Shown here: piece by piece, positions 10,479 through 25,828 of the stretch
Layout of the letters: every line of letters starts with the position of its first letter
Numbering within the stretch: position 1 is the first letter of the stretch
Source of the DNA: Firmicutes bacterium HGW-Firmicutes-19
Lineage (GTDB): Bacteria; Bacillota_I; Bacilli_A; Erysipelotrichales; Erysipelotrichaceae
Direction: 5' to 3'
DNA length: 44,719 nt
NCBI GenBank assembly: GCA_002841515.1
Contig: PGZW01000001.1
Coordinates: 1-44,719 of the forward strand
The notes under the pieces: generated by a model
What the model saw: the letters and a program-made list of their open reading frames with translations, nothing else
Told to the model about the DNA's origin: nothing
Databases searched by the model: none
Position numbers and translations under genes: made by a program

Positions 10479-11580
10479 CGCTAATGAAATTGTAGTTTTT
10501 ACTGAAACGAGCTACTTGGGCATACGTTTCAGTCTCATATTTCTTAATGATTAATTCGAAATCCTCGGCATTATTACTCAGAATTTTTAGAATTGCTTGT
10601 CTTATAAGTATCGAGGGATAATCAGTTGAAGCATACATTGTATACTCATCAAAAATTGATTTTAAAGATTTTCCTTTGTATTTGCTGTTCTGACTCACAA
10701 ATTTCAAGATTTCAATTAATCTGTTTTCATCAATCTCCACTGCTGTCAAGAAAATAAGAACAGAATAAATTGTAGCTCGAGAATATTTAATTGCTGAATT
10801 TGATTGTAACAAATGACAATTTACTTTAAAGAACAGTTCAATTGCATCCTTAACTTTTTTAATGGTTCCTGATTTAAATTTTGAGTTGTTTCTATAAATC
10901 GAACTCAACATTTCTGATGTAATCTTTTTATCAATGATCTGATATTCAATTGTATAGCACACTTTCAAAAGAATATCTTCATATATCTTTCTAACATTAC
11001 TAAACCCTAAGGTGCCTAAAGAAGCACCACTCTCAATGAAAAATGCATTCAAATCACTTATTTGAGTTCGAGTTTCACCAATATGTGCATTTCTTTTTTC
11101 CGAAGTTGTAAGAGTCATGGGTGAATTAAATCTTTGAAATAATTCTGCAATTTCCTTCTCTGTTGCATCAGAAATCTCGTAAACAGGAATTGGTGTAGCT
11201 AGAACTTTATCATAAATAGCTTGATAAAAATCATCGTCTTTTGCTCTTGATTCTATTTGAAGAAATGTTAGATTGTGTAGTTTTACAATTGCATTATTTT
11301 TAGGTTCAAATCGCGAATTTACCCTCAAAGTTCCATCTATAATAAACTCCTTGATCGCAGTAATCCTCTGTAGACCATCTAGAATATCATACTTATTTTC
11401 ATTATTTAGAAAAATAACTGGTGGTATTGGCCAACCACGGATAATTGTGTCAATCAATTTCCTTTTCTTCTTGTTATCCCAAACTTCACCCCTTTGGAAG
11501 TCGGCATCAAGGGATATATTATTCCTCCTTATGCGGTTTGTTATACTTTCAACATCAAATATTGTCATATTTTGTTTCAT
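10465..11580 (-). CDS. DUF262 (ParB/GmrS-like NTPase) domain protein lacking a recognisable DUF1524 nuclease half
   Basis: ORF track 10465..11688. ATG 11578-11580 is preceded by GGGAGAGAAAG. N-terminus: DADFQRGEVWDNKKKRKLIDTIIRGWPIPPVIFL...YDILDGLQRITAI (DUF262 FQR and DGQQR-type motifs). No His-Me/HNH motif seen in the C-terminal half. Confidence 0.8.
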   Translation of the reverse strand: MKQNMTIFDVESITNRIRRNNISLDADFQRGEVWDNKKKRKLIDTIIRGWPIPPVIFLNNENKYDILDGLQRITAIKEFIIDGTLRVNSRFEPKNNAIVKLHNLTFLQIESRAKDDDFYQAIYDKVLATPIPVYEISDATEKEIAELFQRFNSPMTLTTSEKRNAHIGETRTQISDLNAFFIESGASLGTLGFSNVRKIYEDILLKVCYTIEYQIIDKKITSEMLSSIYRNNSKFKSGTIKKVKDAIELFFKVNCHLLQSNSAIKYSRATIYSVLIFLTAVEIDENRLIEILKFVSQNSKYKGKSLKSIFDEYTMYASTDYPSILIRQAILKILSNNAEDFELIIKKYETETYAQVARFSKNYNFISDEFS

Positions 11581-12031
11581 CTTTCTCTCCCATCTAAATA
11601 GCTTAGTTATAAAGAAACATTTCGACTTCAAAACATAAAACATGTTGCCATTAACTAAAACACAAATTGTTTTAGTAATCATTTTCAAATCTTAACTCAA
11701 CCTCTACTATATCGAGGTGATGATAAGATCAATACTTTGTTTTAGATCATAAACTTTTTTCAATAGTTTGAGCATTGATTGTTGAGCATATAAAGTTGAA
11801 AGTCAATGAACTGCCTAACAATGCACTCATTTATGTTCACATTAGTTAAAGACAGTCTTATAAAGAATAATCCTCAAAACAATGTAGGCATCAAATCTAA
11901 AAATTGCAGATGTAGATTTATACTTCATGTTATGATGATATGTCAAAAAGATCTATTTAGTTTATAATTTTACAGATATCTAATAGAAACAACCCCACTT
12001 TACTTTAAAACACATCAAAATATCATCGTAT

Positions 12032-12499: not shown

Positions 12500-13081
12500 C
12501 TATTTACAAACCAAACAAAAGAAATTAATCCATTCTGTCATTTCCGTGTTTTTTTTTGAATCTTTAGTTATGACGACACTGCTAATTTTCAAAAAATCTC
12601 TCATTGGCTCAAAAAAAGTAAACTCATCTTGGCTAAAGCAAGTAAAATCTCTCCCTCCTTCTGAATAATCATCTCCCACTTTAAATGATGCATATAGTAC
12701 CCCTCCCTTTCTAAGTGCTCTTTCTAACCTTCTAAACACATTCGGTAAATCTTCTCTAGAAACATGCAGCAACGATGCACATGCCCATATCCCATCGAAT
12801 TCATCCACATAATCCAAATCCTCAAATCTCAAAAGTTTCGTCATTTGTCCTGTATATTCAGTACTTAATCGAACCATCTGTATTGATGAGTCAAACGCGT
12901 CGACCTCATATCCCTTTTGTAAAAATACTTTGGTATCACGTCCAACACCGCAACCAGCATCCAATATTCGTGCTCCAGGTTTTAAGTATGCCAAAAATTT
13001 GCTGATCATTTCGGACATATCGGCATCGATCGTGTTTTTAAAGTATTCATCATAATTCTCATCGTAGTAGTTCTTGGTCAT
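12500..13081 (-). CDS. Class I SAM-dependent methyltransferase (small, Methyltransf_11/25-like)
   Basis: 193 aa. Motif I ILDAGCGVGRDT, post-I acidic DAFDSS, then GIWACASLLHV. The ATG overlaps the stop of the upstream helicase (ATGA, 13078-13081). Confidence 0.8.
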   Translation of the reverse strand: MTKNYYDENYDEYFKNTIDADMSEMISKFLAYLKPGARILDAGCGVGRDTKVFLQKGYEVDAFDSSIQMVRLSTEYTGQMTKLLRFEDLDYVDEFDGIWACASLLHVSREDLPNVFRRLERALRKGGVLYASFKVGDDYSEGGRDFTCFSQDEFTFFEPMRDFLKISSVVITKDSKKNTEMTEWINFFCLVCK

Positions 13082-15501
13082 TTAACCTCACAATAAGACT
13101 TCTTATCAAGTCTTAAATCAATAAACTCGTTTCTTCTAAACTGTATGGCGTCTTGAATAAAATAAATGGCTTCACTTCTTTTAATGTCTTCACCTAAATC
13201 TATAATGATTCTCATGCCAGTATCCAAAGCTTCAAATATATCGGAATGACTTAAACTCAAGAAATGGACGGGATTATCCTTGGCCATTTTCCAAACTTCA
13301 TTATCTGAGTAATCATGAAATCTCTTTCGAGACTCAACATTTTGAATGTCTATGAAATTTCTTTGATTTGCATAGAAATTTCTAAACGATTGAATGATAT
13401 CCTCTTTACTTATTATATAGCGGAAATGTCCTTCATTAAAGAACGCTAACAAGATAGGGACTTTATATAAGCGACTAAAACTCGTGGATTCAATCATCTC
13501 AATGAATTTCTTTGTTTCCAGATCTAACTCCAATTTGAAATCAGAATCTGATTTTTTCAAGAACTCATAATAGTTTTTAAACGGATTTTTACTACCGAAA
13601 CTTTTGATGAAAGCATACTCGTCACTAGTAAGTGAGTTATATAGTTCTACTCTGGTTGGCACATATCTTAGGTCTCTCTTACATCGCCAATAGTAATCAA
13701 CGATTGTATCTGATTGTTTTCGTGTCGCTATCCGAGACTTCTCAATGATATCTATTACTTTAGGATCAAAGGATATCTGACAATTCAATGGAAGGTTATC
13801 TTCTTTAGCGACTATGTCCGTAATCCGGCCTGTTGAACCCACACTATATTTATTCAAAAACACTTGAGGAATCATTTCAACCTTTTTATAGTTACCCACA
13901 AAGTCTAAAATTTTCAAGTCCATCTTGCCTTCTGATTTCCTTAATCCACGACCAAGTTGCTGAAGAAAGACGGTGATAGATTCTGTTGGTCTTGCCATCA
14001 AAATCATGTCTACTGCCGGTACATCTAATCCCTCATTAAACATATCAACTGTAAAAAGAATTTCTATACTTCCTTTTTTAAGGTTCTCCACCGCAATCTC
14101 TCGGTCTAGCAGATGCTTGCGACCTGCTTGACTATGAACCGTATGAGCAATCACTCCATGATTTTGAAAGTACTCTGCCATCATTTCCGCATGATCGATT
14201 CCAGAACAAAATGCCAATGTACGTTTTCGGTAATGGCTCTTGTAGTGGGTAAATATTAGGTCTGCTCTTTTACCAATCATCAATGCCTTCTCTAAGTCCT
14301 CAGATACATATTTACCATTCTGATAGCGAATCGTATCATAATCAACTGTGAAGTCATAGATCCCATAGTACTGAAACGGAGAAAGCAAGTCACGATTGAT
14401 TGCAGAAAAGAAATCCAAATCATACGCAACGTTATAATCGCAAATTTCAAATACATTTTTACGGTCCATTCTATGTGGCGTTGCAGTTAATCCAAGAAGG
14501 AATTTTGGTTTAAAGTAATCAACTATCTTCTTATAACTAAACGTCGCAGCATGATGAAACTCATCAATAATAACATATTCGTACTTCAATGGATCTATTT
14601 TTTCAATATGTTCCGTCCGGGATAATGTCTGAACAGACGCAAATAAAACATCCTTGCAATCGTAGATACCATCATAAAACCTGCCAATATCATCAGATTT
14701 GCGTATTGCATGGAATGTTCGGATGGCTTGTTCAAGAATTTCCTCACGATGAGCCACAAACAAAACACTTGAGAAACTTAGAGAATCAAAAGCAGCGAGA
14801 GCAGTCTTCCCTACACCTGTAGCCACAACACACAAAGCTTTATCATTTCCATCTTTTCGCGTTTTCTCAAGTTTTAATAATGCTTCCTTCTGAGCGGTGT
14901 TTGGGACAAATTCGCCTTCAACAAATTCCAATTCTTCATCAATTCGAGCCTTACGTAAGGAGTTGAAATGCTTATTGACCTTTCGATCATATCGCTCATT
15001 GAAAACATATCCAGAAGCATAATCATCAACGATTTCTTCAGTCAAGACAACTGACTCATGATTATAAAGTTTCTCGAATTCATCACACAAGTGCTTATAA
15101 CTCTCAAGGTCATTTTTCTCTTCAATACAGTAATTCCACTCCACACCATCAACCAATGCTGACTTCGATATATTGGAACTCCCTAAATAAACTCTTCCAC
15201 CTTCGTCGCTCTTAAAGAAGTATGCCTTCGGATGAAAACTTGGTGACTTGCCATTATATAAATGAACTGTTCCTTCAGGTAGCATGTAAAGTAGTTTATA
15301 CAATGCCACAGGTTGAGTGATATCTAGGTATGTACTGGTCAAAACTCTTACAGGAATGCCATTCTCTACACAATGAACAATCATTTCCTCAATTAACTTT
15401 AATCCTGAATAACGGACAAAAGATACAATGAAATCAACACCATTTGTATCATTGTAACTTGATAATGATTCAACTAGTTTACTAGTAACTGCTCTTCTCA
15501 T
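13078..15501 (-). CDS. PLD(HKD)-nuclease / SF2 (ResIII-type) helicase / C-terminal DUF3427-like domain fusion protein
   Basis: 807 aa. HKD-like FHPKAYFF...LGSSNISKSAL. Helicase motifs: I VVATGVGKT, II VIIDEFHHA, III LGLTATP, VI QQLGRGLR. The ~250-aa C-terminal domain is assigned to DUF3427 from my memory of this architecture only. Confidence 0.85.
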   Translation of the reverse strand: MRRAVTSKLVESLSSYNDTNGVDFIVSFVRYSGLKLIEEMIVHCVENGIPVRVLTSTYLDITQPVALYKLLYMLPEGTVHLYNGKSPSFHPKAYFFKSDEGGRVYLGSSNISKSALVDGVEWNYCIEEKNDLESYKHLCDEFEKLYNHESVVLTEEIVDDYASGYVFNERYDRKVNKHFNSLRKARIDEELEFVEGEFVPNTAQKEALLKLEKTRKDGNDKALCVVATGVGKTALAAFDSLSFSSVLFVAHREEILEQAIRTFHAIRKSDDIGRFYDGIYDCKDVLFASVQTLSRTEHIEKIDPLKYEYVIIDEFHHAATFSYKKIVDYFKPKFLLGLTATPHRMDRKNVFEICDYNVAYDLDFFSAINRDLLSPFQYYGIYDFTVDYDTIRYQNGKYVSEDLEKALMIGKRADLIFTHYKSHYRKRTLAFCSGIDHAEMMAEYFQNHGVIAHTVHSQAGRKHLLDREIAVENLKKGSIEILFTVDMFNEGLDVPAVDMILMARPTESITVFLQQLGRGLRKSEGKMDLKILDFVGNYKKVEMIPQVFLNKYSVGSTGRITDIVAKEDNLPLNCQISFDPKVIDIIEKSRIATRKQSDTIVDYYWRCKRDLRYVPTRVELYNSLTSDEYAFIKSFGSKNPFKNYYEFLKKSDSDFKLELDLETKKFIEMIESTSFSRLYKVPILLAFFNEGHFRYIISKEDIIQSFRNFYANQRNFIDIQNVESRKRFHDYSDNEVWKMAKDNPVHFLSLSHSDIFEALDTGMRIIIDLGEDIKRSEAIYFIQDAIQFRRNEFIDLRLDKKSYCEVK

Positions 15502-15594
15502 GTTCTTTCCTCATTAACTCCAATTAAAAGTTGTTTTGACTTATGTTTTAGAATGCCTGATTGCTAACCAAAGTAGTAACTTATTTTAAACAAA

Positions 15595-17034
15595 CTATTG
15601 AATATAATAATTTAGCACAGTGATGATTCTTTGATTCATACTCTCACTAATTTTTTTTCGTATATTCCTCTTATTGTTGTCATTTATAAAGATATCTACT
15701 TCGTACTTTTCGTCCATAGAAAGAGAATCATATGATGCCCAAAACATTTCAATTTCATTACTCAATGCTGACTTTGTTCTATTTATAATAAATTTCTCAG
15801 GAAGAATGAGAATTCTTTTAAACTCATCAACATTTCCTCCAAATGCATGTTTGAAATAACTAGACTTTGGTCCAACAACACCATGTGTTGGAATAAGAAT
15901 ACATTGAATTGCTCTTAAGAACTTTTTGTTCCAATTCTTACCAACGTACTTTCTGTCTTTTGAATTTTCACCAAAAATGGGTGTATATTTCATAGGAAAT
16001 GACCAAATTGATGTTTGGATTTTTCTATCAGAAAATTCATTGTTTAAATCAATATTAACTTTTAATCTAGTATATAAGTCTTCCGGAGTATCGTCTAGAT
16101 TAAAGAGAATGTAATTAGAACAACTCTTAATATTCTCATCAGCTGCCATTCTCATCACTTCCGAATAAATTCTTACAAATTCATTATTAGCATGATCAAA
16201 TGCTACTCGAAGAGGATTTATCTCGATCTTTCCTAAAAGAGACATTAAGTTACGATTTGAGTATAGTAACCTTGCATCTAGTCCTTGATTGAAATCAATT
16301 ATTTTTTTTAATTTTCGGGTTCGTCCATTTCTATTCACTAGTAGACTCTTATTATTTCTACCAAATCCGCATTTAATAAGGTCCTCAACAATGTCTGCTA
16401 TGTTTTTTGATGCTAATACATTGTTGTCCATCATCATCATATATCGCTTTTCACCAAATTTTGAATCAATATCCTCTTTAACTTTGACAATATCCAAATA
16501 ATCGCAATAAACGGGTTCAATTTGTGGAACTGCACAAAAAACACACTTTCTTATACAGCCATGGGTGCTTCGCAGAAAATATGCATCAAAACTTGGATAT
16601 ACATAACTGAGATAAGGGTTTTTATCCATTGATATCATGTCATAATCTGGAGTTAAGTTGTCGACTACAATATCGTCTTCTCCCAAAATACCAGGTTTAT
16701 CAATTAACCCTCTAATAATATTAATTTTTTTGAGTTCATCAATTTTCTCAAGCTCTTCAAACATAATTGTCGCCATTGGACCACCAATGTAGATATCACT
16801 TAATGATGAAACGAAACTTTTATAATAAAGAATTGTTTTAATTGTGATTTGAAAGTGAAATGTAAAAACCGTTGATATGTAAATTCTGTCCCAATAGATT
16901 TTTGTTAGCTCTTTATTAATACCTTTCGTAAAAAAAACTTCATCGTTTTTTGATTTGTGATACGTTGAGATTTTCATCAATCCCAAGGGTGGGAGTTTAT
17001 TTTTATAATTAGGTTCAACAAGTAGAATTTTCAT
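15595..17034 (-). CDS. Radical SAM enzyme with N-terminal B12-binding-like domain (COG1032/class-B-like)
   Basis: ORF track 15595..17085 (GTG, forming a GTGA overlap with the upstream stop). ATG 17032-17034 has AGAGGAAAAATC upstream. The N-terminus MKILLVEPNYKNKLPPLGLMKISTYHK is typical of the B12-binding-like Rossmann domain. The CX3CX2C cluster motif GCIRKCVFC is encoded at 16534-16557. Downstream: MMMDNNV and IDFNQGLDARL. Confidence 0.85.
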   Translation of the reverse strand: MKILLVEPNYKNKLPPLGLMKISTYHKSKNDEVFFTKGINKELTKIYWDRIYISTVFTFHFQITIKTILYYKSFVSSLSDIYIGGPMATIMFEELEKIDELKKINIIRGLIDKPGILGEDDIVVDNLTPDYDMISMDKNPYLSYVYPSFDAYFLRSTHGCIRKCVFCAVPQIEPVYCDYLDIVKVKEDIDSKFGEKRYMMMMDNNVLASKNIADIVEDLIKCGFGRNNKSLLVNRNGRTRKLKKIIDFNQGLDARLLYSNRNLMSLLGKIEINPLRVAFDHANNEFVRIYSEVMRMAADENIKSCSNYILFNLDDTPEDLYTRLKVNIDLNNEFSDRKIQTSIWSFPMKYTPIFGENSKDRKYVGKNWNKKFLRAIQCILIPTHGVVGPKSSYFKHAFGGNVDEFKRILILPEKFIINRTKSALSNEIEMFWASYDSLSMDEKYEVDIFINDNNKRNIRKKISESMNQRIITVLNYYIQ

Positions 17035-17081
17035 GATTTTTCCTCTATATCTATCATAATTTAATAAAAGCAAATTGTCGA

Positions 17082-18086
17082 TCACATTCCAAGTTTTTTA
17101 GCCAAATCATCAATGTTTGATTTTATTTTCTTAATCTCATAAATGCATTTATTTTTTTGCTCATTATTCATGCTGGTTATTTCATCGATAATGTCCTTTT
17201 CGGCAGTAAAATCTTTAAACTTGCTTAATCGTTCAATAAGAGTACTTGTTGCTCCTGCCAATTCTGCTTTCTCGAATGCATCATCGATTGTATATGAGCC
17301 TTCAACGAACTTCTCAATTATTTTCTCTTTCTTATTTCCTTTAATTTTAAGAACAGGAACTAGTTTTTGTCTAATATCTATTGCATTAGCTATCTCTCCA
17401 CTTTTAATTTTCTCTACAACTGCATTATCAAGCCCAATATGTAAGCCCCTAGCTTTCTTAATATGAATAGATTTGAAATACTCATCAAAATAGCTCCATT
17501 TTTGGCTATCGCAGATTTTGTTGTCTATCATAAATGAATAGATATCTATTAGTTGCTTAACACGCTGCTCTGACAAACCCATTTCTTTAGCCATATTTAA
17601 AGCGGATATCTCATGCTTTTTGTGTCTTCTATACAAGTAACCGGCTTGTTCAAAAGGTGCCCAATCCTTACGGCTAATTATGTGATACTGCCCAAGTAAC
17701 ATAAATATGTCTTTTTCATCAATATCATGGGGAAGAATCTGGCATCTAATTTTCCCCCATTTAATAGGATCTTTTCTAGCTAGTTTTCTATAGGCAGCTA
17801 ATCTACTGTTTCCTTCGAAGACGACAAAGTCAATATCCCTTACTATGACCGGATCAATTAAACCGCCATTTGCCTTAATTGACTGAACCAATGAGTTTAC
17901 ATGTTCCATTTCTTCAAGTTGTTCTTGTATATCTTGTTGTGATGGCTCAGATTCAGAATTTAATCTAAGTAATGAAAAAATTCTGGGGTTCTCAGGGTAA
18001 AACAATAATTTCTCTTGCTCTAGTTCTGTGTGCTTTACAGTTATCTTCTTGCCAGAAATAACCAATTCTCCATAATATTCACTCAT
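17082..18086 (-). CDS. ParB/Srx N-terminal-domain protein, paralogue B
   Basis: ORF track 17082..18107. ATG 18084-18086 (MSEYYGEL) has GGGGGA upstream and overlaps the SNF2 stop by 8 nt. Motifs: YPENPRI, SIKANGGLIDPVIV, VFEGNSRLAAYRKL (GxxR box), DWAPFEQAGYLY. Confidence 0.75.
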   Translation of the reverse strand: MSEYYGELVISGKKITVKHTELEQEKLLFYPENPRIFSLLRLNSESEPSQQDIQEQLEEMEHVNSLVQSIKANGGLIDPVIVRDIDFVVFEGNSRLAAYRKLARKDPIKWGKIRCQILPHDIDEKDIFMLLGQYHIISRKDWAPFEQAGYLYRRHKKHEISALNMAKEMGLSEQRVKQLIDIYSFMIDNKICDSQKWSYFDEYFKSIHIKKARGLHIGLDNAVVEKIKSGEIANAIDIRQKLVPVLKIKGNKKEKIIEKFVEGSYTIDDAFEKAELAGATSTLIERLSKFKDFTAEKDIIDEITSMNNEQKNKCIYEIKKIKSNIDDLAKKLGM

Positions 18087-19566
18087 TTGCTTCATCCCCC
18101 ATTTCAAGTATTTCGTGAACTATTTTCCCATAATCGTAATTCGAGTTTTGCTGGTATGTTTCTAATGTAATATCACCTTGAGCTAATTGTGCTGCAAGAT
18201 ATTTACTCTTTATAAGTGCGTCAATCCACTCATCAATAGAATCCTTCATAATTAAATTATAGATATGACATGTTTTAGTTTGAGATATTCTATGAATTCT
18301 ATCCTGAGCTTGTAAATAGTCATCTAGACTTAAATTCCGGTCATAAAATATAGCATGGTTTGCGACAGTTAATGTTAATCCTTCTTTAGCAGAGGCTGGT
18401 GTAGCTATTAGTACTTTAGCATCATTGTCAGTTAGAAATCTTTCCACTGATTCATTTCTGTCAGCTATGTTCATTCCTCCGTAAATCTTTACTGCTCCAT
18501 AATCTTTAAACTCACTTGTCAACCACTTAACATTATCAATGAATGTTGTCCACACGATTACCTTTTCACCTTTATTTATTATAGTTTGCACAATATTCTC
18601 AAGGATCCGAAATTTACCAGGTTGGTCGTAGTAACTTGAGTCGATTAATTTGGGATTGGATGTCACTTGAATCAAACGTAGCAGTCTTTTTAAAACCGAT
18701 TCAGAACTATCCTCTTTTAGTTTGCCGTCTTTCTTAATTACAATACGTAGTTCTTTCTTAATTTGCTCATACATATCCTTCTGATAAAACTCCCAATCGC
18801 AAGTAATTACATGATACTCTTTGTTAGGCAATTCAATAATTCCGCTTCCTTTTGTCTCTCTAACTGAAAATCCTGATATTTTCGAGAAAATTATGTTGAT
18901 TGAGTCTTCGAAATCTTTCCTGGTTTCAAGATTATCAATATAACTATTTTTCAGATCCGCACTCTTCCTAAAGTAATCGAAATCATCACCCAAAGATTTG
19001 CCTTTATCAAGAAAATATATTTGAGCCCAAATATCGTATGGTCTGTTTGCTACAGGTGTTCCAGTCATAATAATTCGTTTCTGAAACAAATCTGACAAAG
19101 CAAACAGTGTTTGAGTTATTTTTGACTCGGGGTTTTTCATTTTCGCTGATTCGTCAATAATAATCGCAACATTCCTTGTCTTACAAAACAGTTCCAGTCG
19201 ATCTTTCTCACTTACAAGTACTTCAAAATGTGTTAATACCAGTCGAGCAGGACTATTAAAAACATAAAAATTCCCAGCTAAATTTTGTGATAAGACTCGA
19301 GGTTTCATGAAAGTATGATTTTTAAGTTCTTTTTCCCAATTGGCTATTAAGCTCTTTTTGGTCAGATAAATCACAGTGTCAATGATACCGTTCTTTAACC
19401 AATAAAGCATAATGTCAATTGCTATTTTTGTCTTGCCTAGCCCTTGTTCATGGAAAATTGCTGCATAGGGCAAGTCCTTGACAAACTCAACAGCTTGTTT
19501 CTGGTAAATGAAAGGTTCAAACTTCGACTTAAGATTAGGTTCTCTTTTTAATGATATCTTCTGCAT
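18079..19566 (-). CDS. Minimal SNF2-family ATPase/translocase
   Basis: 495 aa. Motif I HEQGLGKTK, motif II IIIDESAKMKN, motif III MTGTPVANR; C-terminal lobe LTVANHAIFYDRNLSLDDYLQAQDRIHRISQT. No extra domains. Confidence 0.85.
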   Translation of the reverse strand: MQKISLKREPNLKSKFEPFIYQKQAVEFVKDLPYAAIFHEQGLGKTKIAIDIMLYWLKNGIIDTVIYLTKKSLIANWEKELKNHTFMKPRVLSQNLAGNFYVFNSPARLVLTHFEVLVSEKDRLELFCKTRNVAIIIDESAKMKNPESKITQTLFALSDLFQKRIIMTGTPVANRPYDIWAQIYFLDKGKSLGDDFDYFRKSADLKNSYIDNLETRKDFEDSINIIFSKISGFSVRETKGSGIIELPNKEYHVITCDWEFYQKDMYEQIKKELRIVIKKDGKLKEDSSESVLKRLLRLIQVTSNPKLIDSSYYDQPGKFRILENIVQTIINKGEKVIVWTTFIDNVKWLTSEFKDYGAVKIYGGMNIADRNESVERFLTDNDAKVLIATPASAKEGLTLTVANHAIFYDRNLSLDDYLQAQDRIHRISQTKTCHIYNLIMKDSIDEWIDALIKSKYLAAQLAQGDITLETYQQNSNYDYGKIVHEILEMGDEANE

Positions 19567-19567
19567 A

Positions 19568-19975
19568 TCAAAACTCCAAAATTCTAAGTTCGATTTTGCT
19601 ATCGGTTGAATACTTAAGTTTTCTTTTGAAGATATTGTTCACTATAGGTTTGCAAAAATACGGAACAGATAAAACTATCATTGATTTTCCATCGTGAATT
19701 TTACAAGTTGTTAGATAACTCTCATATTGAGAAATACTGTGAGATCTTTCAATATCTTTCGCGCTCTTAGCCTCACCAATCACCAATAAACCATCTAGTG
19801 GACGGTATGCATATAGATCTGGGAAATAACCACCAAAAGTACATTTGGGCTTATTGTATTGCTCATATCCAGGACAATCAGCAAGAATGTAACTTTCGTC
19901 ACCGTGAAAGATATTGAGTACAACCCAATCTTTCATCTCTTTGACCAATTGCATGTGCTCTATAGACTCTGACAT
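19568..19975 (-). CDS. Small PD-(D/E)xK-fold nuclease candidate
   Basis: 135 aa. FPDLYAYRPLDGLLVIGEAKS gives PD...(11 aa)...GEAK, the restriction-endonuclease-fold signature. It abuts ParB-like A (TAA|ATG) and ends 1 nt before the SNF2 ATG. Confidence 0.55.
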   Translation of the reverse strand: MSESIEHMQLVKEMKDWVVLNIFHGDESYILADCPGYEQYNKPKCTFGGYFPDLYAYRPLDGLLVIGEAKSAKDIERSHSISQYESYLTTCKIHDGKSMIVLSVPYFCKPIVNNIFKRKLKYSTDSKIELRILEF

Positions 19976-20998
19976 TTATTCATTACTCAATTCATTATAC
20001 AGAGTCTTAATCTGTTCATGCAGTTCCATAATAATGGTATATCGTTGTGGTTCGTTACCACTTTTTAAAGCAGTAAATTCCTCAAAAGGCAGTGATCTAA
20101 TTTTCCTTATAGCTTCAAGAATTAAGTTTTCAAGTGATGATCTTTCTAGTCCAGGTTCTGATGGCACTACACAGAATTTCCTAGCATCCTTGATACTTTT
20201 GCCATCCTTAAGAAATTCTTGCTTTGCTCTTTGGTTATCTAGAATCACAGGCAACTCACGAATGTCAGCAATAGGTTTAAACTTGTTATCAATTACCCAC
20301 TGAGAAAAATCTTTAAGGGTGAACCCATGTTTCAGAATTGAATGTTGTATAGAATCTCTTAAAACTTCCCTAAATGCAGAAAACTTATTCTTTTCAAACT
20401 CATCATCACTCTCTAGAAGTGGTCTATAGTGTTCTTCCATGAGATTATACGCTCTAATATAATCTTGAACATCAGATTTATTCCCTCCACAAAAATCAAC
20501 AATTTGTGCCATTGTCAAACATTCATCTTTATAAAGAGAATTTAGATATTTAGCTTTACTATATGGATCCCAATCACGTGGTCCAACTAAGTGAGCTTGC
20601 AATCTTATTGCATTTATCATCTGCTGTTCTGTATCAGTATAAACTATTGCTGGAATAGAGGACCAATCACCTTTAATATTATCCTTAAGAAATTCTCGGT
20701 AAATCTGTACCCGCGTATTACCTTCAACTACAGTAAATGTACCACTATTACTATCGTAGTTTACAATAATTGGATGGATTATACCCCCATTTGTTCTAAT
20801 TGACTCCTTCAAACTTGTGTATGTGGTACCTGGGGATGTCCCACTGTTGCTGTTCGATACAAGTGCTAGTTTAATCATTTCTTCACTGATTTCATCGTTA
20901 TACATTTCTAAAATCGATTTGATTCTTGGATTGTCACGATCCAACTGCAGATCTGACACTTGTAGCATTTTAAACTCTGTTTTGACTTGATATGTCAT
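19976..20998 (-). CDS. ParB/Srx N-terminal-domain protein, paralogue A
   Basis: 340 aa. AAGGAGG SD. Motifs: LQLDRDNPRI, SIRTNGGIIHPIIV, VVEGNTRVQIYREF (GxxR box), DWDPYSKAKYL. Collinear motif order with 17082-18086. Confidence 0.75.
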   Translation of the reverse strand: MTYQVKTEFKMLQVSDLQLDRDNPRIKSILEMYNDEISEEMIKLALVSNSNSGTSPGTTYTSLKESIRTNGGIIHPIIVNYDSNSGTFTVVEGNTRVQIYREFLKDNIKGDWSSIPAIVYTDTEQQMINAIRLQAHLVGPRDWDPYSKAKYLNSLYKDECLTMAQIVDFCGGNKSDVQDYIRAYNLMEEHYRPLLESDDEFEKNKFSAFREVLRDSIQHSILKHGFTLKDFSQWVIDNKFKPIADIRELPVILDNQRAKQEFLKDGKSIKDARKFCVVPSEPGLERSSLENLILEAIRKIRSLPFEEFTALKSGNEPQRYTIIMELHEQIKTLYNELSNE

Positions 20999-21016
20999 TT
21001 GTTTTCCTCCTTAAAT

Positions 21017-22180
21017 TTATGTTAGTTTTCTAATCCAATCATATATTTCTTCCCAATTATCGACTGGGATGATATTTTTAGGCATATCCATTTTTTGATT
21101 ATACAATTGTTTCATTAAAAATACGATTCTGCAAGTTTGACTAAGTCTTATTGCATTATCTAGATTATCTTCGACGAAAAATTCGATTTTCTTTTCTGCA
21201 CTCAAAATATACCTGTCCTTTATTAGAGTATTATCTTTTTCAATAGTCAAATCATCATGCTCAAAATCATTGCACTCTAGCCACCTTTTGGTTAACTCAT
21301 CGACGTTGAACGTAGCACTCTTCCAGTCTCTCTTAGTAAATATATGTACTTTATAATTTAGGTTGGTTCTAATCTTTGCTAAGTAGGTCGAAGATTTATT
21401 TTTGACCGGCATCTTAGACCAGTATTCTTTCGTTAAGAAAACACTTTGTTCTATGTTCTTGGTTACCCTTTCAATACACTTGTGTACTGGGATTTCGACT
21501 ATCTCATCGTGCACAATGTTTAGACCTGTGTGATTTTCATTTGCAATATCACAAAAGTGGTATGTGTGTTCATTTAATACACCATCAATATCAACTCCGA
21601 TTATTTTTGAATACATATCACTAGCCTCCTCCGCGCTTTTGCAAATCCCTCTGTATGCATAATAATGACCTAAAATAAGTATTATCCATGCTATAAAATA
21701 CCAATAAAATTCTACTTGTATTACGTTGCCAATTAATCTCATTGCGCCATAGACTAGATAAGACGAATTTGCTGTTCCAGTCGCTAACACAATCCAGATA
21801 AACTGCAAATGATCTACATATGATGGTTTATTTTTTTGAGTAGGTAAAACCGAATAATAAAGTATTTCATCATTACTCAAATCTGATTTGTTATAATGAT
21901 ATGCTCTCATAGAATTCACTACTCGAGCGTACAATATCGCTTCGTTTCGGAGTTGATATAAGTAAAAGCTAGCGAATGTTGCAACTAGCCCAACAAGTAA
22001 TAAAGCATAAGATAAAATTGTTCCTTCATTATCTTTTGATAAAAGAAAGAAAGGTGCAGCATATATTGCCAATAGGTATTGGAAGAAAGTAGTAATTCTT
22101 TGAGAAATGCTAAAATGTGATTGGGCAATCACTTCATACTCCTTTAGGAAGAAATCAGACTCTCGAGCTTTATCTCTCAT
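21017..22180 (-). CDS. Membrane-anchored HAD-superfamily phosphatase, NT5C (5'(3')-deoxyribonucleotidase)-like
   Basis: 387 aa. The N-terminal ~170 aa has 4-5 hydrophobic helices. C-terminal domain: IIGVDIDGVLNE (DxDxV), HIFTKRDW (motif II), LTKRWLECNDF (K..WL), FFVEDNLDNA (motif IV-like). AAGGAG SD. The ATG overlaps the upstream DUF2075 gene by 11 nt, and there is only an 18-nt gap to ParB-like A. Confidence 0.65.
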   Translation of the reverse strand: MRDKARESDFFLKEYEVIAQSHFSISQRITTFFQYLLAIYAAPFFLLSKDNEGTILSYALLLVGLVATFASFYLYQLRNEAILYARVVNSMRAYHYNKSDLSNDEILYYSVLPTQKNKPSYVDHLQFIWIVLATGTANSSYLVYGAMRLIGNVIQVEFYWYFIAWIILILGHYYAYRGICKSAEEASDMYSKIIGVDIDGVLNEHTYHFCDIANENHTGLNIVHDEIVEIPVHKCIERVTKNIEQSVFLTKEYWSKMPVKNKSSTYLAKIRTNLNYKVHIFTKRDWKSATFNVDELTKRWLECNDFEHDDLTIEKDNTLIKDRYILSAEKKIEFFVEDNLDNAIRLSQTCRIVFLMKQLYNQKMDMPKNIIPVDNWEEIYDWIRKLT

Positions 22181-24062
22181 TATTTTGCTCCTTAATAAGA
22201 TTATTCTTAAGTCTAGGATTAATTATATAAACAAAACATCCTTTTTGCCCCCTTGTAAGAAGTGTTCTGTATGTATTCTTAATAATCTCATCCGCAATCT
22301 CTTTTGCTTTATCCGGATTTGTCTTAAGCATTGATTTCAACCCTTTGATAGAAGCATCAGTATTCGCTCTTTTCGTGATGTCCGTGATGATTTTACCATC
22401 CTCATATCTGATATCATCCCCAATGATCACACCCACATAATCGAACTCTAATCCTTGGGAAGTATGAATACATCCCACTTGATTTACGGATTCCGGATCA
22501 ATTGCCCAGGTATCCGTATTTCCTAAGTTCCAAGCCATCTCAAAATCATGTTCCGGAATCTTGATATCAAAGTGATTTGGATTGTTCTTATTCTGACTGT
22601 CCCAGTCCCAGCAGTATCCGGCTAGCAGTCGTGCTCGATTATTAATTTTATTCTTCTCTTTAATCAAATCTCTAAGTTCATTTGGACTGTCTACGATTCT
22701 GAAATCATAGTCGAAGTCCTTATCAAAGGTCGTATTAGCTGTCTCTCGGATTTGTAATATGTGATCGATCCATGCCAGATAGCCATCACTTCCATTACAC
22801 CTGAACTGAGATTGTAATTCACCACCATAGATTTCTGCTTTATGGTATTGTGCCCACTTTTTGATTTCTTTAATCGATCCGATATCTTTAACTGTTATCT
22901 TCTGTCTTTCATCTATAAAGAAAATTGAGAACAGTGCGGCATGTATGATTTCCTTAATCTGATTCTCCCCGAGATTTCCCATGAGTCCGGATTTCTCATT
23001 TAGTCTGTGAGCCTCATCTACCACCAAGACATCAAACTGATTTTTCAAGGTCTGGGTATACTCACCTGAACCACTGAACAGTGCATTGATAAACGGTTTC
23101 TTATACCCACCTTCCTGCAACTTTCTTTTGAAGATGTTTCTCGGAGCTGCATTTTTCGTCACATAGCGACATACTTTACCGCTCTGCGCACTCATAAGTT
23201 CTGCCAGTAAATGTATAGCTAGTACGCTCTTCCCTGTTCCTGGGCCACCTTTGACCACGAAGATGCGTTTCTGACCATCTTTAAACGATAGCTGAGCTAG
23301 TTCTTTGGCTCGTTCATAGATAACCTTCTGTTCATCGATCATAATGAACTCAGGATTGCCTTTAACCATAGCTAATACTGATTCCTGTAACATTTTGGAA
23401 GGAACGATCTTACCTCGTTCAATATCATAGAGAACTTGTTTCTGATCTCCCTTTTTCAAATACTTCTTAATGAAGTCACGAAGCTTTTCATTGTCTCCTT
23501 TGATAAAGACCGGAGCTTGTTCCATGTAGTAGGAATAGTCCTCATCCAACAAAGGATCATCCACTTTTCTCGAATAATTATGTAAAAAAGCGCAAGGAAA
23601 CAATTCAATGTTTTTCTTGCGCACATCTTCGTTATAATCATGTATTAAACTGGCATACGACCAAGCTTGATAAGATGGATGTGTGGTATTAACTTTCGAA
23701 CCACCCAAAACCGTACGCACAATCGCATCTTGTCCGTTAACTTTCTCAACTTCACTCCACTGTTTTAATTCTATAATAACTGCTCTTGGTTTATCGGTTT
23801 CATCATATCCGGATAGTATCAAATCGACTCGCTTCGACGTATTGGGTATCTTATACTCAATCGCAATACCACTGTCATCGGGAATCTCAGGAGTATTGAT
23901 GACATTATTAACGAACGTTAAAGAATTCGCCCAAGAATGTATTTCTTGAATCGATACGTGTATTCCGGCTTTTTCCATAACTAAAGAACGAATCTTATCA
24001 TCGATTCGTTGGTGATACACATCTTGTACAAACTCATGTTTTAAGGCTTCGTACACAATCAT
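22170..24062 (-). CDS. DUF2075 (Schlafen-group-3-like SF1 ATPase) with N-terminal PD-(D/E)xK-like domain
   Basis: 630 aa. N-terminus KRVDLILSGYDE...AVIIELKQW (D...ELK). Walker A VVKGGPGTGKSVLAIHLL, Walker B VLVVDEAHRLNE. C-terminus CIHTSQGLEFDYVGVIIG and TLLTRGQKGCFVY. Confidence 0.8.
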   Translation of the reverse strand: MIVYEALKHEFVQDVYHQRIDDKIRSLVMEKAGIHVSIQEIHSWANSLTFVNNVINTPEIPDDSGIAIEYKIPNTSKRVDLILSGYDETDKPRAVIIELKQWSEVEKVNGQDAIVRTVLGGSKVNTTHPSYQAWSYASLIHDYNEDVRKKNIELFPCAFLHNYSRKVDDPLLDEDYSYYMEQAPVFIKGDNEKLRDFIKKYLKKGDQKQVLYDIERGKIVPSKMLQESVLAMVKGNPEFIMIDEQKVIYERAKELAQLSFKDGQKRIFVVKGGPGTGKSVLAIHLLAELMSAQSGKVCRYVTKNAAPRNIFKRKLQEGGYKKPFINALFSGSGEYTQTLKNQFDVLVVDEAHRLNEKSGLMGNLGENQIKEIIHAALFSIFFIDERQKITVKDIGSIKEIKKWAQYHKAEIYGGELQSQFRCNGSDGYLAWIDHILQIRETANTTFDKDFDYDFRIVDSPNELRDLIKEKNKINNRARLLAGYCWDWDSQNKNNPNHFDIKIPEHDFEMAWNLGNTDTWAIDPESVNQVGCIHTSQGLEFDYVGVIIGDDIRYEDGKIITDITKRANTDASIKGLKSMLKTNPDKAKEIADEIIKNTYRTLLTRGQKGCFVYIINPRLKNNLIKEQNNER

Positions 24063-24136: not shown

Positions 24137-25828
24137 TTACTCATTTGCTCTCTTGATATATTTTTTCAGGTGCTCTCGTAACCCCGGATCACAAACATAA
24201 ACATAGGTTCCTTTGATACCCCGGGTCAACAATGTAGTGTAGATATTTATGATATACTCATGCAATTCAATTTTAGTTGCAGTATTCAGGCCATTAATAT
24301 CATGATAATTTTCTTTATCAACATAAATCTTCTTTGTTTTTTTGTCGTATCTTAATTCATTCCCAATAATTACACCGGTATAATTTAGGTCATATCCTTG
24401 AATGGTATGAATACAACCAATCTCATTGATTGCATTCTTCGAGTTCACCCAATCAACATCTTTTGTATTCCAGATAAAGCCGTAATCTTCAATTAGAATA
24501 TCGATACTGCCATCCAAGAAACCTCCGCTCTCATTGAAATCACGTGGATGATCTTTTGTAATCCATTTCCATGAGTAACCAGCAACATTTCTGCATAACC
24601 CATGAGTTTCATTTAGTTTTTTTATTGAATCCGTCATTTTTTTAACGTCATCAAATAATTTGAAATCGTAAATGCCAAAGTCCGTATTTTTGGTCAATGA
24701 ATTTTCATGAAATAAATCGAAAATATATTGAACATAGTCATTTCCCCCTAAGCACCGAAGTTGTGACTCGAGCCGATAATGATTTACATGGCCATTATAA
24801 TTTTCAAATAATAGTCTGTCCGGTCTAATATCCGTTGGCTTAATTGTTTGATATGAGTCATAAAAAAGTATTTGCTGCTTACTTTTCTTTATAATCCAAT
24901 CAAGTTCTGTACCACTCGCATCTAACCCTAACATAATGTTGTTACGATCAAAAACTTCGTAATTCACCAAATTCTTTCGTCTTCGCAACCGATGTGCTTC
25001 ATCAACTATCAACAGATCATAGTCATCTTTAACACACTCATTTGGACTAATCACCATTGTATCATCAAGACCTTTTACTTTCTTAAACACCTTCTTTATC
25101 GTTTTTCTCAATGACTTCATTGGAATTACCAAACCAACTTTTAGGTTAAGTTTTTCAACTTCTTCTATACCCTCGATGAACATATGTGAATCGTCATCAA
25201 ACTCGGGTTTAACATTTACAAGATCAACAAATAGCTTCATTAAGTATATACCTAAAACCGTTTTACCGGTCCCAGCACCTCCATCGACTATAGATACGCT
25301 TGAAACATTTTGAACCATATTTTGAACGACATCATCTAGAATGCTTTTAGCTACAAAATATTGATCGGTTGTAAGAGCTTTGTATGGTGAGTACTTAAAA
25401 ATATCACTGTTTTCAATATTGATCAATTCGTTCTCTGCTAGATGCAACTCCCTAAGCAAACTCCAAATTATGCTAAACTTTTCCTTATACGTGTCTTTAT
25501 GATAATAGTTGTGTGATTGTATACCCCCATTACCATTCTGTAATTTGAACTTACCGTCTGCAGACATAAATTTAATCAACGAAGATTCAATATCAAGAGT
25601 CGCCGATTTATTGAAATCAGTATCCGCAATGAAATGTATCTTTCTAAAATCTCCACGCCTAACATCCTTAAGGTGCGTGCTCATTCTGATAAAAGCACTG
25701 GTAGTTTCCCCGATGTAAGCTTCGTCTGAATTATGGATTATATATACAACTGGCCAGTTTTCACCATATTGCCATCTCCGGACTTCTTCACATTTAGATT
25801 GCTCAAACCTTTTCGAGATAAGTTTCAT
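24137..25828 (-). CDS. DUF2075 ATPase with N-terminal GIY-YIG nuclease domain
   Basis: 563 aa. GIY-YIG: VVYIIHNSDEAYIGETTSAFIRMSTH...LDIESSLI...LQNGNGG. Walker A IVDGGAGTGKTVLGIYL, Walker B LLIVDEAHRLRR. C-terminus CIHTIQGYDLNYTGVIIG and TLLTRGIKGTYVY. Confidence 0.8.
   Translation of the reverse strand: MKLISKRFEQSKCEEVRRWQYGENWPVVYIIHNSDEAYIGETTSAFIRMSTHLKDVRRGDFRKIHFIADTDFNKSATLDIESSLIKFMSADGKFKLQNGNGGIQSHNYYHKDTYKEKFSIIWSLLRELHLAENELINIENSDIFKYSPYKALTTDQYFVAKSILDDVVQNMVQNVSSVSIVDGGAGTGKTVLGIYLMKLFVDLVNVKPEFDDDSHMFIEGIEEVEKLNLKVGLVIPMKSLRKTIKKVFKKVKGLDDTMVISPNECVKDDYDLLIVDEAHRLRRRKNLVNYEVFDRNNIMLGLDASGTELDWIIKKSKQQILFYDSYQTIKPTDIRPDRLLFENYNGHVNHYRLESQLRCLGGNDYVQYIFDLFHENSLTKNTDFGIYDFKLFDDVKKMTDSIKKLNETHGLCRNVAGYSWKWITKDHPRDFNESGGFLDGSIDILIEDYGFIWNTKDVDWVNSKNAINEIGCIHTIQGYDLNYTGVIIGNELRYDKKTKKIYVDKENYHDINGLNTATKIELHEYIINIYTTLLTRGIKGTYVYVCDPGLREHLKKYIKRANE

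Follow-up and report, generated by a model that had tools for sequence, protein, structure and literature searches.

Positions 1 to 44,719 of contig PGZW01000001.1 from Firmicutes bacterium HGW-Firmicutes-19, together referred to here as the window, contain a block of five minus-strand genes at 15595-20998. In the direction of transcription these genes encode a ParB-like protein (ParB1), a small PD-(D/E)xK nuclease, an SNF2 ATPase, a second ParB-like protein (ParB2) and a radical S-adenosylmethionine (SAM) enzyme, further called rSAM (Table 1). The cassette is bipartite: the first four genes constitute module A, and the fifth represents an rSAM module that is also found with other gene sets. 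The cassette is mobile, occurs across at least eight bacterial phyla and is probably a conflict or defence system.

The five genes are tightly packed. The stop codon of ParB1 abuts the start codon of the nuclease gene (TAA followed by ATG, read in the sequence at 19976/19975), a gap of 1 nucleotide (nt) at 19567 separates the nuclease and SNF2 genes, and the SNF2 and ParB2 genes share an overlap of 8 nt, ATGAGTGA, at 18086-18079. Between the stop codon of ParB2 and the rSAM ATG at 17034 there is a gap of 47 nt; use of an alternative GTG start at 17085 would create a GTGA overlap. In metagenome contigs that encode an identical SNF2 protein, independent gene calls arrive at the same start of the rSAM protein of 479 amino acids (aa) and at a ParB2 of 334-337 aa. 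The original prediction, which was made from these nucleotides alone, had listed the open reading frames, their junctions and a set of motifs. All five frames are intact at the positions it gave, each junction was read again and matches, and the motifs are all present in the five proteins. A scan for promoters and terminators gave signals at chance level and did not inform the operon limits.

Table 1. Genes of the cassette at 15595-20998 and of its surroundings in the window.
Feature	Coordinates	Strand	Remarks
ParB1	20998-19976	minus	340 aa; first gene of module A
Small PD-(D/E)xK nuclease	19975-19568	minus	135 aa; putative effector in module A, would cut DNA
SNF2 ATPase/translocase	19566-18079	minus	495 aa
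ParB2	18086-17082	minus	334 aa from ATG; last gene of module A, directly upstream of rSAM
Radical SAM enzyme (rSAM)	17034-15595	minus	479 aa from ATG after AGAGGA Shine-Dalgarno
GmrSD_N (DUF262) protein and overlapping 431-aa protein	9183-11688	minus	NsnA 1e-26, PD-T4-2_A; 431-aa protein without domain match
PLD-nuclease + SF2 helicase (807 aa) and class-I SAM methyltransferase (193 aa)	12500-15501	minus	mREase_IV 1e-93
387-aa membrane protein	21017-22180	minus	N-terminal transmembrane segments, C-terminal HAD-like 'DIDGVL' motif
Tandem Schlafen-group-3 (SLFN) helicase paralogues	22170-24062, 24137-25828	minus	PF09848 1.6e-104 and 1.9e-62

ParB1 and ParB2 belong to the ParB/Srx superfamily, having the ParB N-terminal fold with invariant NPR and GN(T/S)R motifs. 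ParB1 is composed of an N-terminal domain of the nucleoside triphosphate (NTP)-binding type, with the motifs DNPRI, SIRTNGG..HPIIV and EGNTR, a helix-turn-helix (HTH) region and a helical C-terminus; the corresponding motifs of ParB2 are ENPRI, SIKANGG..DPVIV and EGNSR. Residues D20, N23, P24, R25, G93, N94 and R96 of ParB1 are invariant in 16 homologues, and in ParB2 the invariant residues are N33, P34, R35, E91, G92, N93 and R95. Matches to general family models are weak: ParB1 is recognized by Pfam ParB_N (PF02195) at 2e-4 and ParB2 by NCBIfam TIGR00180 (parB) at 7.5e-6, over residues 61-191, i.e., the N-domain and the HTH. In PADLOC, both proteins match PDC-M38A (1.7e-13 for ParB1, 6e-11 for ParB2) and, weakly, the N-terminal ParB part of the PD-Lambda-5_A models (positions ~3-95, E 2e-5 to 5e-3). 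Profile searches against the PDB retrieved Noc (7nfu/7ol9, 1e-4) and the ParB-family entry 7bnk with ParB1, and ParB/Spo0J (4umk, 4e-5), Noc and 7bnk with ParB2; these ParB/Noc matches (E 4e-5 to 1e-4) span the N-terminal NTP-binding domain and the HTH. The two proteins are full-length paralogues of each other (hhalign probability 100%, E 4e-54, 318 columns) that have diverged to 31% identity, and each locus has two of them.

With the chromosomal ParB and Noc proteins, which are CTP-dependent clamps, ParB1 and ParB2 share the N-terminal NTP-binding domain, the HTH and the NPR and G..R motifs. However, the sequences of their C-terminal halves show no relationship to the dimerisation domains of ParB, they come as two paralogues in one set, and they have GN(T/S)R. 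In addition, no ParA-like gene is present in the cassette or in syntenic loci, and the region 15400-22300 holds no convincing palindrome that could be recognized as parS. ParB-family proteins bind CTP and their clamps are dimers. Since the clamps are dimeric and both paralogues are conserved, this suggests that ParB1 and ParB2 form a hetero-dimer.

The 135-aa protein encoded between ParB1 and the SNF2 gene has no match in Pfam, PADLOC or NCBIfam, and its sequence profile retrieved nothing meaningful from the PDB. Its place among the PD-(D/E)xK proteins follows from an AlphaFold model (pLDDT 87) with an α-β-β-β-α-β restriction-endonuclease core, in which D53 lies at the start of β2 and E68 and K70 lie in β3. 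The model was built on a shallow alignment, as a word-indexed homologue search gave 4 proteins, and Foldseek support for it is qualitative: no match is significant (best E 0.035), and the weak ones are mostly to PD-(D/E)xK and XPF-type proteins, i.e., CdiA-CT, McrC, EcoO109I, BamHI, Mus81 and Hef. Among 20 homologues from distant phyla, H7, D33, P52-D53, I66-G67-E68-A69 and Q83 are invariant, and K70 is present in 95%.

The SNF2 protein consists of two RecA-like lobes alone, without any accessory domain. Pfam SNF2-rel_dom (PF00176) covers residues 21-306 (8e-26) and Helicase_C (PF00271) residues 318-427 (6e-17). With both lobes present and motifs I, II and VI intact, the protein is a member of the SNF2 family; across 14 orthologues no variation is seen in Walker A (G42-L43-G44-K45), in motif II (D138-E139) or in motif VI (Q419..D422-R423..H425-R426). 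The PADLOC models ZorD (5.5e-45, positions 445-878 of 908) and DpdE (2e-35) are matched over their ATPase cores only, and the NCBIfam scores are 73 bits for ZorD (cut-off 1500) and 27 bits for DpdE (cut-off 500). Matches to PADLOC DrmD and BrxH are weak and equally limited to the core.

The fifth protein, rSAM, has a flavodoxin-like N-domain that is remotely B12-binding-like, a radical SAM core with the motif CIRKCVFC, and a helical C-domain. It is a member of the radical SAM superfamily, as illustrated by the CX3CX2C motif, by a match to Pfam Radical_SAM (PF04055) at 1.2e-5, which is under the curated cut-off, and by an AlphaFold model (pLDDT 90.6) that resembles radical SAM enzymes. No sequence match was found in the PDB, and no match whatever in PADLOC. 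Scoring of 8,000 candidates gave at least 4,799 homologous clusters, and the names that members of this family carry go no further than 'cobalamin-binding domain-containing', 'radical SAM' or 'hypothetical'. Identities go down to ~31%, with ~70 positions in all three domains at least 95% conserved. Across 67 members, C160, C164 and C167 of the CX3CX2C motif are invariant, and no other cysteine column is conserved above 40%.

Foldseek against the PDB returned MtaB, MiaB and RimO as the sole significant relatives of rSAM (E 4e-10 to 6e-6, TM ~0.45); in the viral library BFVD, methylthiotransferase (MTTase)-like and COG1032-type radical SAM enzymes were found. The three enzymes, which act on macromolecules (tRNA in two of the three, ribosomal protein S12 in the other), likewise have a flavodoxin-like N-domain followed by a radical SAM core. 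However, their sequence identity to rSAM is 11-12%. They carry three cysteines in the N-domain for an auxiliary [4Fe-4S] cluster, which the rSAM family lacks, and they end in a TRAM domain, whereas residues ~390-479 of rSAM are all-helical in the model and have no Pfam TRAM match. Methylthiotransferase chemistry is ruled out for rSAM by the absence of the auxiliary-cluster cysteines and of the TRAM domain. The original prediction had further labelled the protein as a B12-domain enzyme, a label that finds no support in the window protein: the B12-binding model PF02310 gives no match even at E<=5, a homologue (P0034) reaches 9e-7 with 29.2 bits against a cut-off of 32.1, and no solved cobalamin-dependent radical SAM enzyme is among the significant Foldseek matches. 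Judged from sequence, the label appears to describe a remote resemblance.

The linkage between module A and rSAM was followed from both sides. A scan seeded on rSAM, with one genome per species, returned 79 loci, ~20 of which show the gene order of the window, ParB1-nuclease-SNF2-ParB2-rSAM. Their hosts are Erysipelotrichaceae, several Clostridia, Candidatus Brocadia, Wunengus, Chloroflexia, Pseudomonadales, Arenicellales, Desulfovibrionaceae, Desulfobacterales and Daviesbacteria of the Candidate Phyla Radiation (CPR), so that the same order is present in Bacillota, Planctomycetota, Chloroflexota, Pseudomonadota, Desulfobacterota and Patescibacteria. For the reverse search, which was done in metagenomes, the SNF2 alignment was used as the seed, the nuclease alignment being too divergent for patterns. 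This yielded at least 495 relatives, and 80 loci were fetched. Full flanks, i.e., at least 4.5 kb upstream and at least 5.5 kb downstream, were available for 20 of these, and an rSAM gene lies within a few kb in 19, the nineteenth being locus L147, where an intact copy was located by tblastn (65% identity over 525 aa). The sole full-flank locus without an rSAM gene is L132. The position of rSAM varies among the SNF2-seeded loci: it is downstream on the same strand in 27, upstream on the same strand in 17, convergent in 11 and divergent in 3. This permuted position points to selection on co-occurrence and not to operon inheritance, and the fact that the genes stay linked in distant phyla although they have been rearranged is a sign that they are functionally coupled. 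The PLD-helicase, methyltransferase, SLFN and GmrSD neighbours in the window are kept with the cassette in none of the 80 metagenome loci, and have isolated matches among the genome loci. The five families are conserved in the same order in unrelated genomes, among defence and mobile-element genes, whereas a lack of synteny elsewhere would have counted against the original prediction; the tightly coupled five-gene block that it described is made up of two separable modules and is not an indivisible operon.

Some of these loci contain additional genes or have an unusual relationship. At L132, a DUF6996-DUF6997-DUF7226 protein is encoded 12 nt past ParB2 (L132:10498-11763), and the same architecture is found in Tissierella sp. 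Yu-01 between two DNA methyltransferases, adjoining an rSAM gene (L001:12487-13758); it may represent an uncharacterised restriction enzyme family. Proteins of 600-930 aa with sigma-70 region 2 and region 4 are encoded past ParB2 in variants that have rSAM upstream of ParB1 (L130:6579-9371, L136:10457-12781 and L120:10335-12140), which is odd for a defence-type locus. Lastly, a Bacillota metagenome-assembled genome (MAG) and a Desulfobacterales MAG (L009 and L010) have near-identical cassettes and flanks, with the same lengths and order of genes over ~15 kb; either the region was transferred horizontally a very short time ago or one of the two MAGs was binned wrongly.

The surroundings of the cassette are those of a defence island. 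In the window it lies in a stretch of low guanine-cytosine (GC) content from ~9 to 27 kb, with 28-36% GC against 39-45% in the flanks, and this stretch is packed with defence-type genes. The flanks of the window are made up of ordinary chromosomal genes, i.e., Bmp, PfkB, LacI, an MFS transporter, TetR and a multicopper oxidase. At other loci the cassette is found near AbiE, integrases and transposases, on conjugative plasmids and on IMG/VR (viral) contigs. When 119 flanking proteins were scanned with PADLOC, 193 models were matched and AbiE pairs turned up in 2-3 loci, but no simple enrichment figure emerged. Otherwise the flanks elsewhere consist of unrelated housekeeping genes. As no neighbour recurs beyond a few loci, there is no conserved metabolic neighbourhood. 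Membership of rSAM in a metabolic family with metabolic neighbours would, according to the original prediction, have spoken against a DNA-targeting system; the neighbours are instead defence and mobile-element genes.

The rSAM module itself is found in several arrangements. In gammaproteobacterial MAGs, ParB1-nuclease-SNF2-ParB2 is divergent from a DGQHR-rSAM-GHKL trio, and in a Desulfovibrionaceae MAG module A is convergent with a ParB-rSAM pair. A co-directional seven-gene version is present at 13365-21617 of NC_012854.1, on plasmid pR132505 of Rhizobium leguminosarum WSM1325, where the genes are annotated as hypothetical, hypothetical, DEAD/DEAH helicase, ParB N-terminal domain, DGQHR domain, radical SAM and ATP-binding. 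Plasmid pNL1 of Novosphingobium (aromaticivorans) carries the DGQHR-rSAM-ATPase trio without module A. The DGQHR proteins that adjoin rSAM in such larger versions match PF14072 (DndB) and PADLOC DpdB, down to 3.6e-35 (L031), and the ATPases of rSAM modules are of the GHKL type (HATPase_c_3, 1e-10 to 1e-12). The window contains neither a GHKL nor a DGQHR gene, and its cassette is the minimal form. On both plasmids (L186, NC_012854.1 6113-25549, pR132505; L187, NC_009426.1 110872-130305, pNL1) the trio is accompanied by a second 'ATP-binding protein' of ~530 aa, GHKL-like by hidden Markov model (HMM), and by a PIN-like protein of 638-651 aa; in addition, pNL1 encodes a DGQHR protein of 769 aa on the opposite strand. 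A second GHKL-like gene after the rSAM-GHKL pair is also seen in the metagenome loci L142, L145 and L164.

Over 84 rSAM loci, the gene adjoining rSAM encodes a GHKL ATPase in 36, a ParB-like protein in 15, a PD-λ-5_A-like 'ParB/HEPN' protein (E 4e-60, full length) in 11, a NERD-domain helicase in 5 and a DGQHR protein in 4; in ~79% it is a ParB-superfamily protein or a GHKL ATPase. A search of a phage database with the ParB/HEPN partner gave three weak matches and nothing more. Within its own subclade, of at least 50% identity, the window rSAM is grouped with enzymes that serve ParB/HEPN or NERD-helicase partners as well as with others that serve module A, and this mixture shows that exchange between effector sets is recent. 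Sharing of one enzyme across effector sets would be the behaviour of a portable modification (or effector) gene.

The same rSAM family also stands at the end of other operons. A four-gene 373-557-GHKL-rSAM operon is common in Lachnospiraceae and Oscillospiraceae, is also present in Spirochaetes, Verrucomicrobia and IMG/VR contigs, and looks like another undescribed candidate system. At L070:5608-11677 (also L044-L080, and L179-L185 in IMG/VR) it encodes a 373-aa unknown, a 557-aa protein with weak mad8 and Shedu-DUF4263 matches, a 528-aa GHKL ATPase and a 558-aa rSAM; the last two genes overlap by 4 nt, and three of the four proteins have no PADLOC match. In Clostridium ultunense (L003/L012, AZSU01000002.1 ~816-827 kb), genes for a UvrD-like protein, a DEAD/Helicase_C protein (1,148 aa), a 632-aa MZB/DUF1998 protein and a NERD + SF1 helicase are followed by rSAM, and the locus directly adjoins a purine biosynthesis operon. 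A set of helicases similar to those of DISARM or Druantia seems here to have been brought together with the same rSAM enzyme. A helicase set of Tissierella, with a 1,487-aa protein, also ends in this rSAM family.

For none of the five proteins is there a specific model in PADLOC v2 or NCBIfam 20.0, in which the matches are at the superfamily level at most. A description of the cassette was not found in full-text searches of papers that are open without a subscription, and a prior description is unlikely; the Druantia and ARMADA papers were set aside as candidates, ParB being a labelling tool there. The earlier statement that the set maps to no named system agrees with the PADLOC v2, NCBIfam 20.0 and Pfam scans and with the literature, and the same scans confirm that the cassette lacks a TGT, DndACDE, PglZ/PglX and a methyltransferase. 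Membership in Dpd, Dnd, PD-λ-5, Zorya, DISARM and BREX was rejected, as the matches are at the superfamily level only. In the logic of its architecture the cassette is closest to Dpd or Dnd, and it shares a ParB-superfamily theme with PD-λ-5, although the defining features of each are absent.

DpdB is a ParB-like (DGQHR) ATPase whose activity is required for the insertion of preQ0 into DNA by DpdA, and dpdD-K supply restriction (PMC10164549). The likeness lies in the combination of a ParB-superfamily ATPase with a DNA modifier, putative in the case of rSAM, and in a helicase-rich restriction set, which in Dpd includes the SNF2-like DpdE. However, no DpdA/TGT was found among the ten island proteins (Pfam, PADLOC, NCBIfam) or in the scanned neighbour samples of related loci. 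ParB1 and ParB2 have no PADLOC match to DpdB, DpdB-like proteins being present only in larger versions elsewhere, and the SNF2 protein is not at DpdE family level, as it matches only the ATPase core of a model of ~1,176 positions. Moreover, the window is without DpdC and preQ0 pathway genes, rSAM stands in the position of the modifier, the ParBs are ParB/Noc-like, and the restriction part comprises the 495-aa SNF2 protein and the 135-aa nuclease. In Dnd, DndB accompanies DndC and DndD (PMC10853773), a triad of a DGQHR protein, an Fe-S enzyme and a DNA-manipulating ATPase to which DGQHR-rSAM-GHKL on pR132505 and pNL1 is parallel. A modular link to separate nuclease modules is common to the cassette and Dnd/Ssp. 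Here, however, a true radical SAM TIM-barrel enzyme is found instead of the PP-loop protein DndC, and a GHKL ATPase instead of an ABC/SMC one. Domain scans of the window detected no DndC/SspD, DndA/SspA desulfurase or DndD/SspC, and no DndE; DndB-like (PF14072) proteins are present only in related loci.

PD-λ-5, from an E. coli prophage (Vassallo et al., 2022), is recorded as 'ParB/HEPN, methyltransferase' and gives broad anti-phage protection; its cloning needed an mrr deletion host (PMC9519451). In the 11 loci with a full-length PD-λ-5_A-like ParB/HEPN protein, the partner is an rSAM homologue 48-52% identical to that of the window, and in two-gene loci rSAM occupies the position of the PD-λ-5 methyltransferase. 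In contrast, the window ParBs are without the HEPN half and have rSAM, not a methyltransferase, as partner, no PD-λ-5_B methyltransferase is encoded inside 15595-20998, and PD-λ-5 has neither an SNF2 nor a PD-(D/E)xK gene. The idea that rSAM simply replaces the PD-λ-5 methyltransferase is weakened, as six ParB/HEPN + rSAM pairs adjoin complete DpnII-type cassettes with methyltransferases of their own.

With Zorya, the cassette has in common that an SNF2 core, for which ZorD is the nearest PADLOC model, is combined with a PD-(D/E)xK nuclease, but the likeness is restricted to the ZorD core, the nuclease is a separate protein, and there are no ZorABC matches. For DISARM and BREX, no DUF1998, PglZ or PglX was found in the window (Pfam); a DEAD + MZB (DUF1998) set accompanies the rSAM family in C. 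ultunense, not in the window. Ophion, which is composed of a radical SAM protein, a PHP protein and a PRTase, is a validated anti-phage system in which residues of the radical SAM protein are essential (bioRxiv 10.1101/2025.09.30.679545). The presence of a radical SAM enzyme in a defence locus is shared with Ophion and the viperins, but their partner genes are unrelated to those of the cassette. Viperin-type enzymes act on free nucleotides and have no N-terminal flavodoxin-like domain.

Linkage, context and the lack of a named match give good support to the main proposal of the original prediction, i.e., that the block is an undescribed, conserved DNA-targeting conflict system. As to how it may work, ParB1 and ParB2 are probably the two halves of a hetero-dimeric clamp whose loading on DNA depends on NTP. 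The SNF2 translocase, bare as it is, and the small nuclease would be brought in by this clamp, the nuclease being the component that would cleave. For rSAM, the most likely activity is to modify nucleic acid covalently by radical chemistry; host DNA would be the likeliest substrate, and the resulting mark would distinguish self from non-self for module A. The roles that the original prediction gave to the parts, with DNA loading by the ParBs, modification by rSAM and the nuclease as effector, are plausible. Tentatively, the cassette is read as a modification-restriction system in which rSAM places a mark on nucleic acid and DNA without it is restricted by module A, a reading whose chances are a little short of even. 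It is based on four considerations: ParB-superfamily proteins partner DNA-modifying enzymes in Dpd and Dnd; rSAM homologues hold the methyltransferase position beside PD-λ-5_A-like proteins; the nearest folds, MiaB, MtaB and RimO, modify macromolecules; and the cassette, with its nuclease and translocase, has no other modifier. The proposed self-marking would parallel DpdB-DpdA, DndB-DndC-DndD and the PD-λ-5 methyltransferase. A more detailed version, which has a substantial though less than even chance, is that rSAM, targeted by ParB-superfamily NTPases, places a previously unknown radical-generated mark on host DNA (e.g., C-methylation or another C-H functionalisation of base, sugar or backbone), and that this mark is read by the hetero-dimeric ParB clamp, which would license the SNF2-nuclease pair to destroy unmarked DNA.

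Several points weigh against modification-restriction. Firstly, that rSAM acts on DNA is something we infer by analogy; the methylthiotransferase likeness of its model is moderate, and with the auxiliary-cluster cysteines absent the chemistry is not readable from it. Secondly, Zorya, Druantia and Gabija are helicase-nuclease defence systems without any modification, and because many such systems work in this way, the missing methyltransferase is weak evidence. Thirdly, the DpnII-type cassette beside each of the six ParB/HEPN + rSAM pairs is complete, with two methyltransferases. Fourthly, module A is almost never found without rSAM and the rSAM module is often found without module A, an asymmetry that fits an effector or regulator role equally well. 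In addition, the ParBs have not kept the canonical GERR motif; with GN(T/S)R in its place, it is uncertain whether they are competent NTPases and hydrolyse their ligand. Lastly, neither a target-recognition domain nor, among the palindromes of 15400-22300, a parS-like site was found.

It is rather unlikely, though a serious alternative, that rSAM is the effector. Module A or the ParB/GHKL partner would then sense foreign DNA and switch on rSAM, which would damage or block the nucleic acid of the invader or, like viperins or Ophion, produce a nucleotide that is toxic or terminates chains, with the nuclease and the SNF2 protein serving to sense or process. Exchangeable effectors are typically portable in the way that rSAM is, as a terminal gene common to many different sets of helicases, nucleases and ATPases. 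Nucleotides, the substrates of viperin-type enzymes, are also what the ParB partners would handle, CTP being the ligand of ParBs. DpdB hydrolyses ATP (PMC10164549), and with Ophion a radical SAM anti-phage effector has been validated (bioRxiv 10.1101/2025.09.30.679545). However, a dedicated nuclease whose catalytic residues are invariant is already part of the cassette, and rSAM is unlike viperin-like structures, having an extra N-terminal domain and its best matches among enzymes that modify macromolecules. Moreover, rSAM with a ParB-superfamily or GHKL partner alone, as in the pNL1 triad, resembles orphan modification modules and not unregulated toxins.

Alternatively, rSAM could be a regulator or guard, i.e., a SAM- or redox-sensing subunit that licenses the ParB, SNF2 and nuclease proteins without modifying nucleic acid, and that detects, e.g., phage SAM-degrading enzymes or Fe-S/oxygen status. 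This is improbable. Such a role would suit the conservation of the SAM-binding cluster alone, with no auxiliary cluster, as well as the observation that loci never hold more than one copy of the rSAM gene and that its translation is always coupled to that of an NTPase partner. On the other hand, conservation of ~70 positions over three domains is what would be seen in a full catalytic enzyme with a substrate pocket, and to our knowledge there is no precedent for a purely sensory radical SAM protein.

A function outside immunity has an equally small chance of being correct. The cassette would in that case be a mobile-element maintenance, addiction, epigenetic-regulation or DNA-repair module lodged in variable islands, which is in line with the IMG/VR contigs and large conjugative plasmids on which it is found. 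Partition is the classical role of ParB proteins, and spore photoproduct lyase is a radical SAM enzyme that repairs DNA. Yet the cassette and its syntenic loci have no ParA partner and no parS-like site accompanies it, chromosomal copies lie among bona fide defence genes, and a nuclease with an SNF2 translocase is a hallmark of the restriction type; besides, addiction and defence can coexist. That rSAM and module A are independent systems, adjacent by chance in defence islands, is hardly credible: although the two parts are divergent or convergent in L036, L037 and L045, the rSAM module stands alone on pNL1 and the SNF2 module of L132 has no rSAM, the enzyme is present in 19/20 full-flank SNF2 loci, which are rearranged and come from different phyla, junctions that overlap or nearly abut are common, and random island neighbours are not retained comparably (0/80 metagenome loci for the PLD-helicase, methyltransferase, SLFN and GmrSD neighbours in the window).

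If rSAM does write a mark on DNA, as the modification-restriction reading holds, the cassette would be the first radical-SAM-based system for marking self and non-self and a new chemical class of restriction-modification. It would add a chemistry to methylation, phosphorothioation and 7-deazaguanine as the DNA modifications in bacterial immunity. The family of at least 4,799 clusters would then be a portable 'radical epigenetic writer' for several otherwise unrelated defence systems, which would offer a role for a very large orphan radical SAM family. Paralogous ParB/Noc-like clamps would be immune components, and the cassette a compact, tractable model of clamp-guided restriction. Its proposed architecture, ParB-assisted modification with helicase-nuclease restriction, is of a known type; the radical SAM component is unprecedented. 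If rSAM is instead an effector or regulator, it still holds that the cassette, like its relatives, is abundant and conserved and has no annotation: the DGQHR-rSAM-GHKL triad, the ParB/HEPN + rSAM pairs and the C4-C3-GHKL-rSAM system are missing from PADLOC v2 and NCBIfam 20.0. Generically annotated copies are carried by the cultured hosts Rhizobium leguminosarum WSM1325 (pR132505) and Novosphingobium aromaticivorans (pNL1).

The genes next to the cassette in the window have features of their own (Table 1). The GmrSD_N pair at the edge of the low-GC island is probably another two-gene defence unit. The 193-aa methyltransferase (12500-13081; Methyltransf_25, mad2-like 1e-14) overlaps the PLD-helicase gene by 4 nt, a pairing that is unusual for an enzyme of the type-IV-like kind; 93 nt separate this pair from the rSAM gene upstream of it, and it does not travel with the cassette. 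On the other side, the gene for the 387-aa protein, which has no Pfam or PADLOC match, ends 18 nt ahead of ParB1. Its homologues are found near the cassette in 3/24 genome and 5/80 metagenome loci, at varying positions, and it may be an accessory gene. It overlaps by 11 nt with the gene of the first SLFN helicase, a protein that also matches the AbiO, Nhi and PDC-S41 models.

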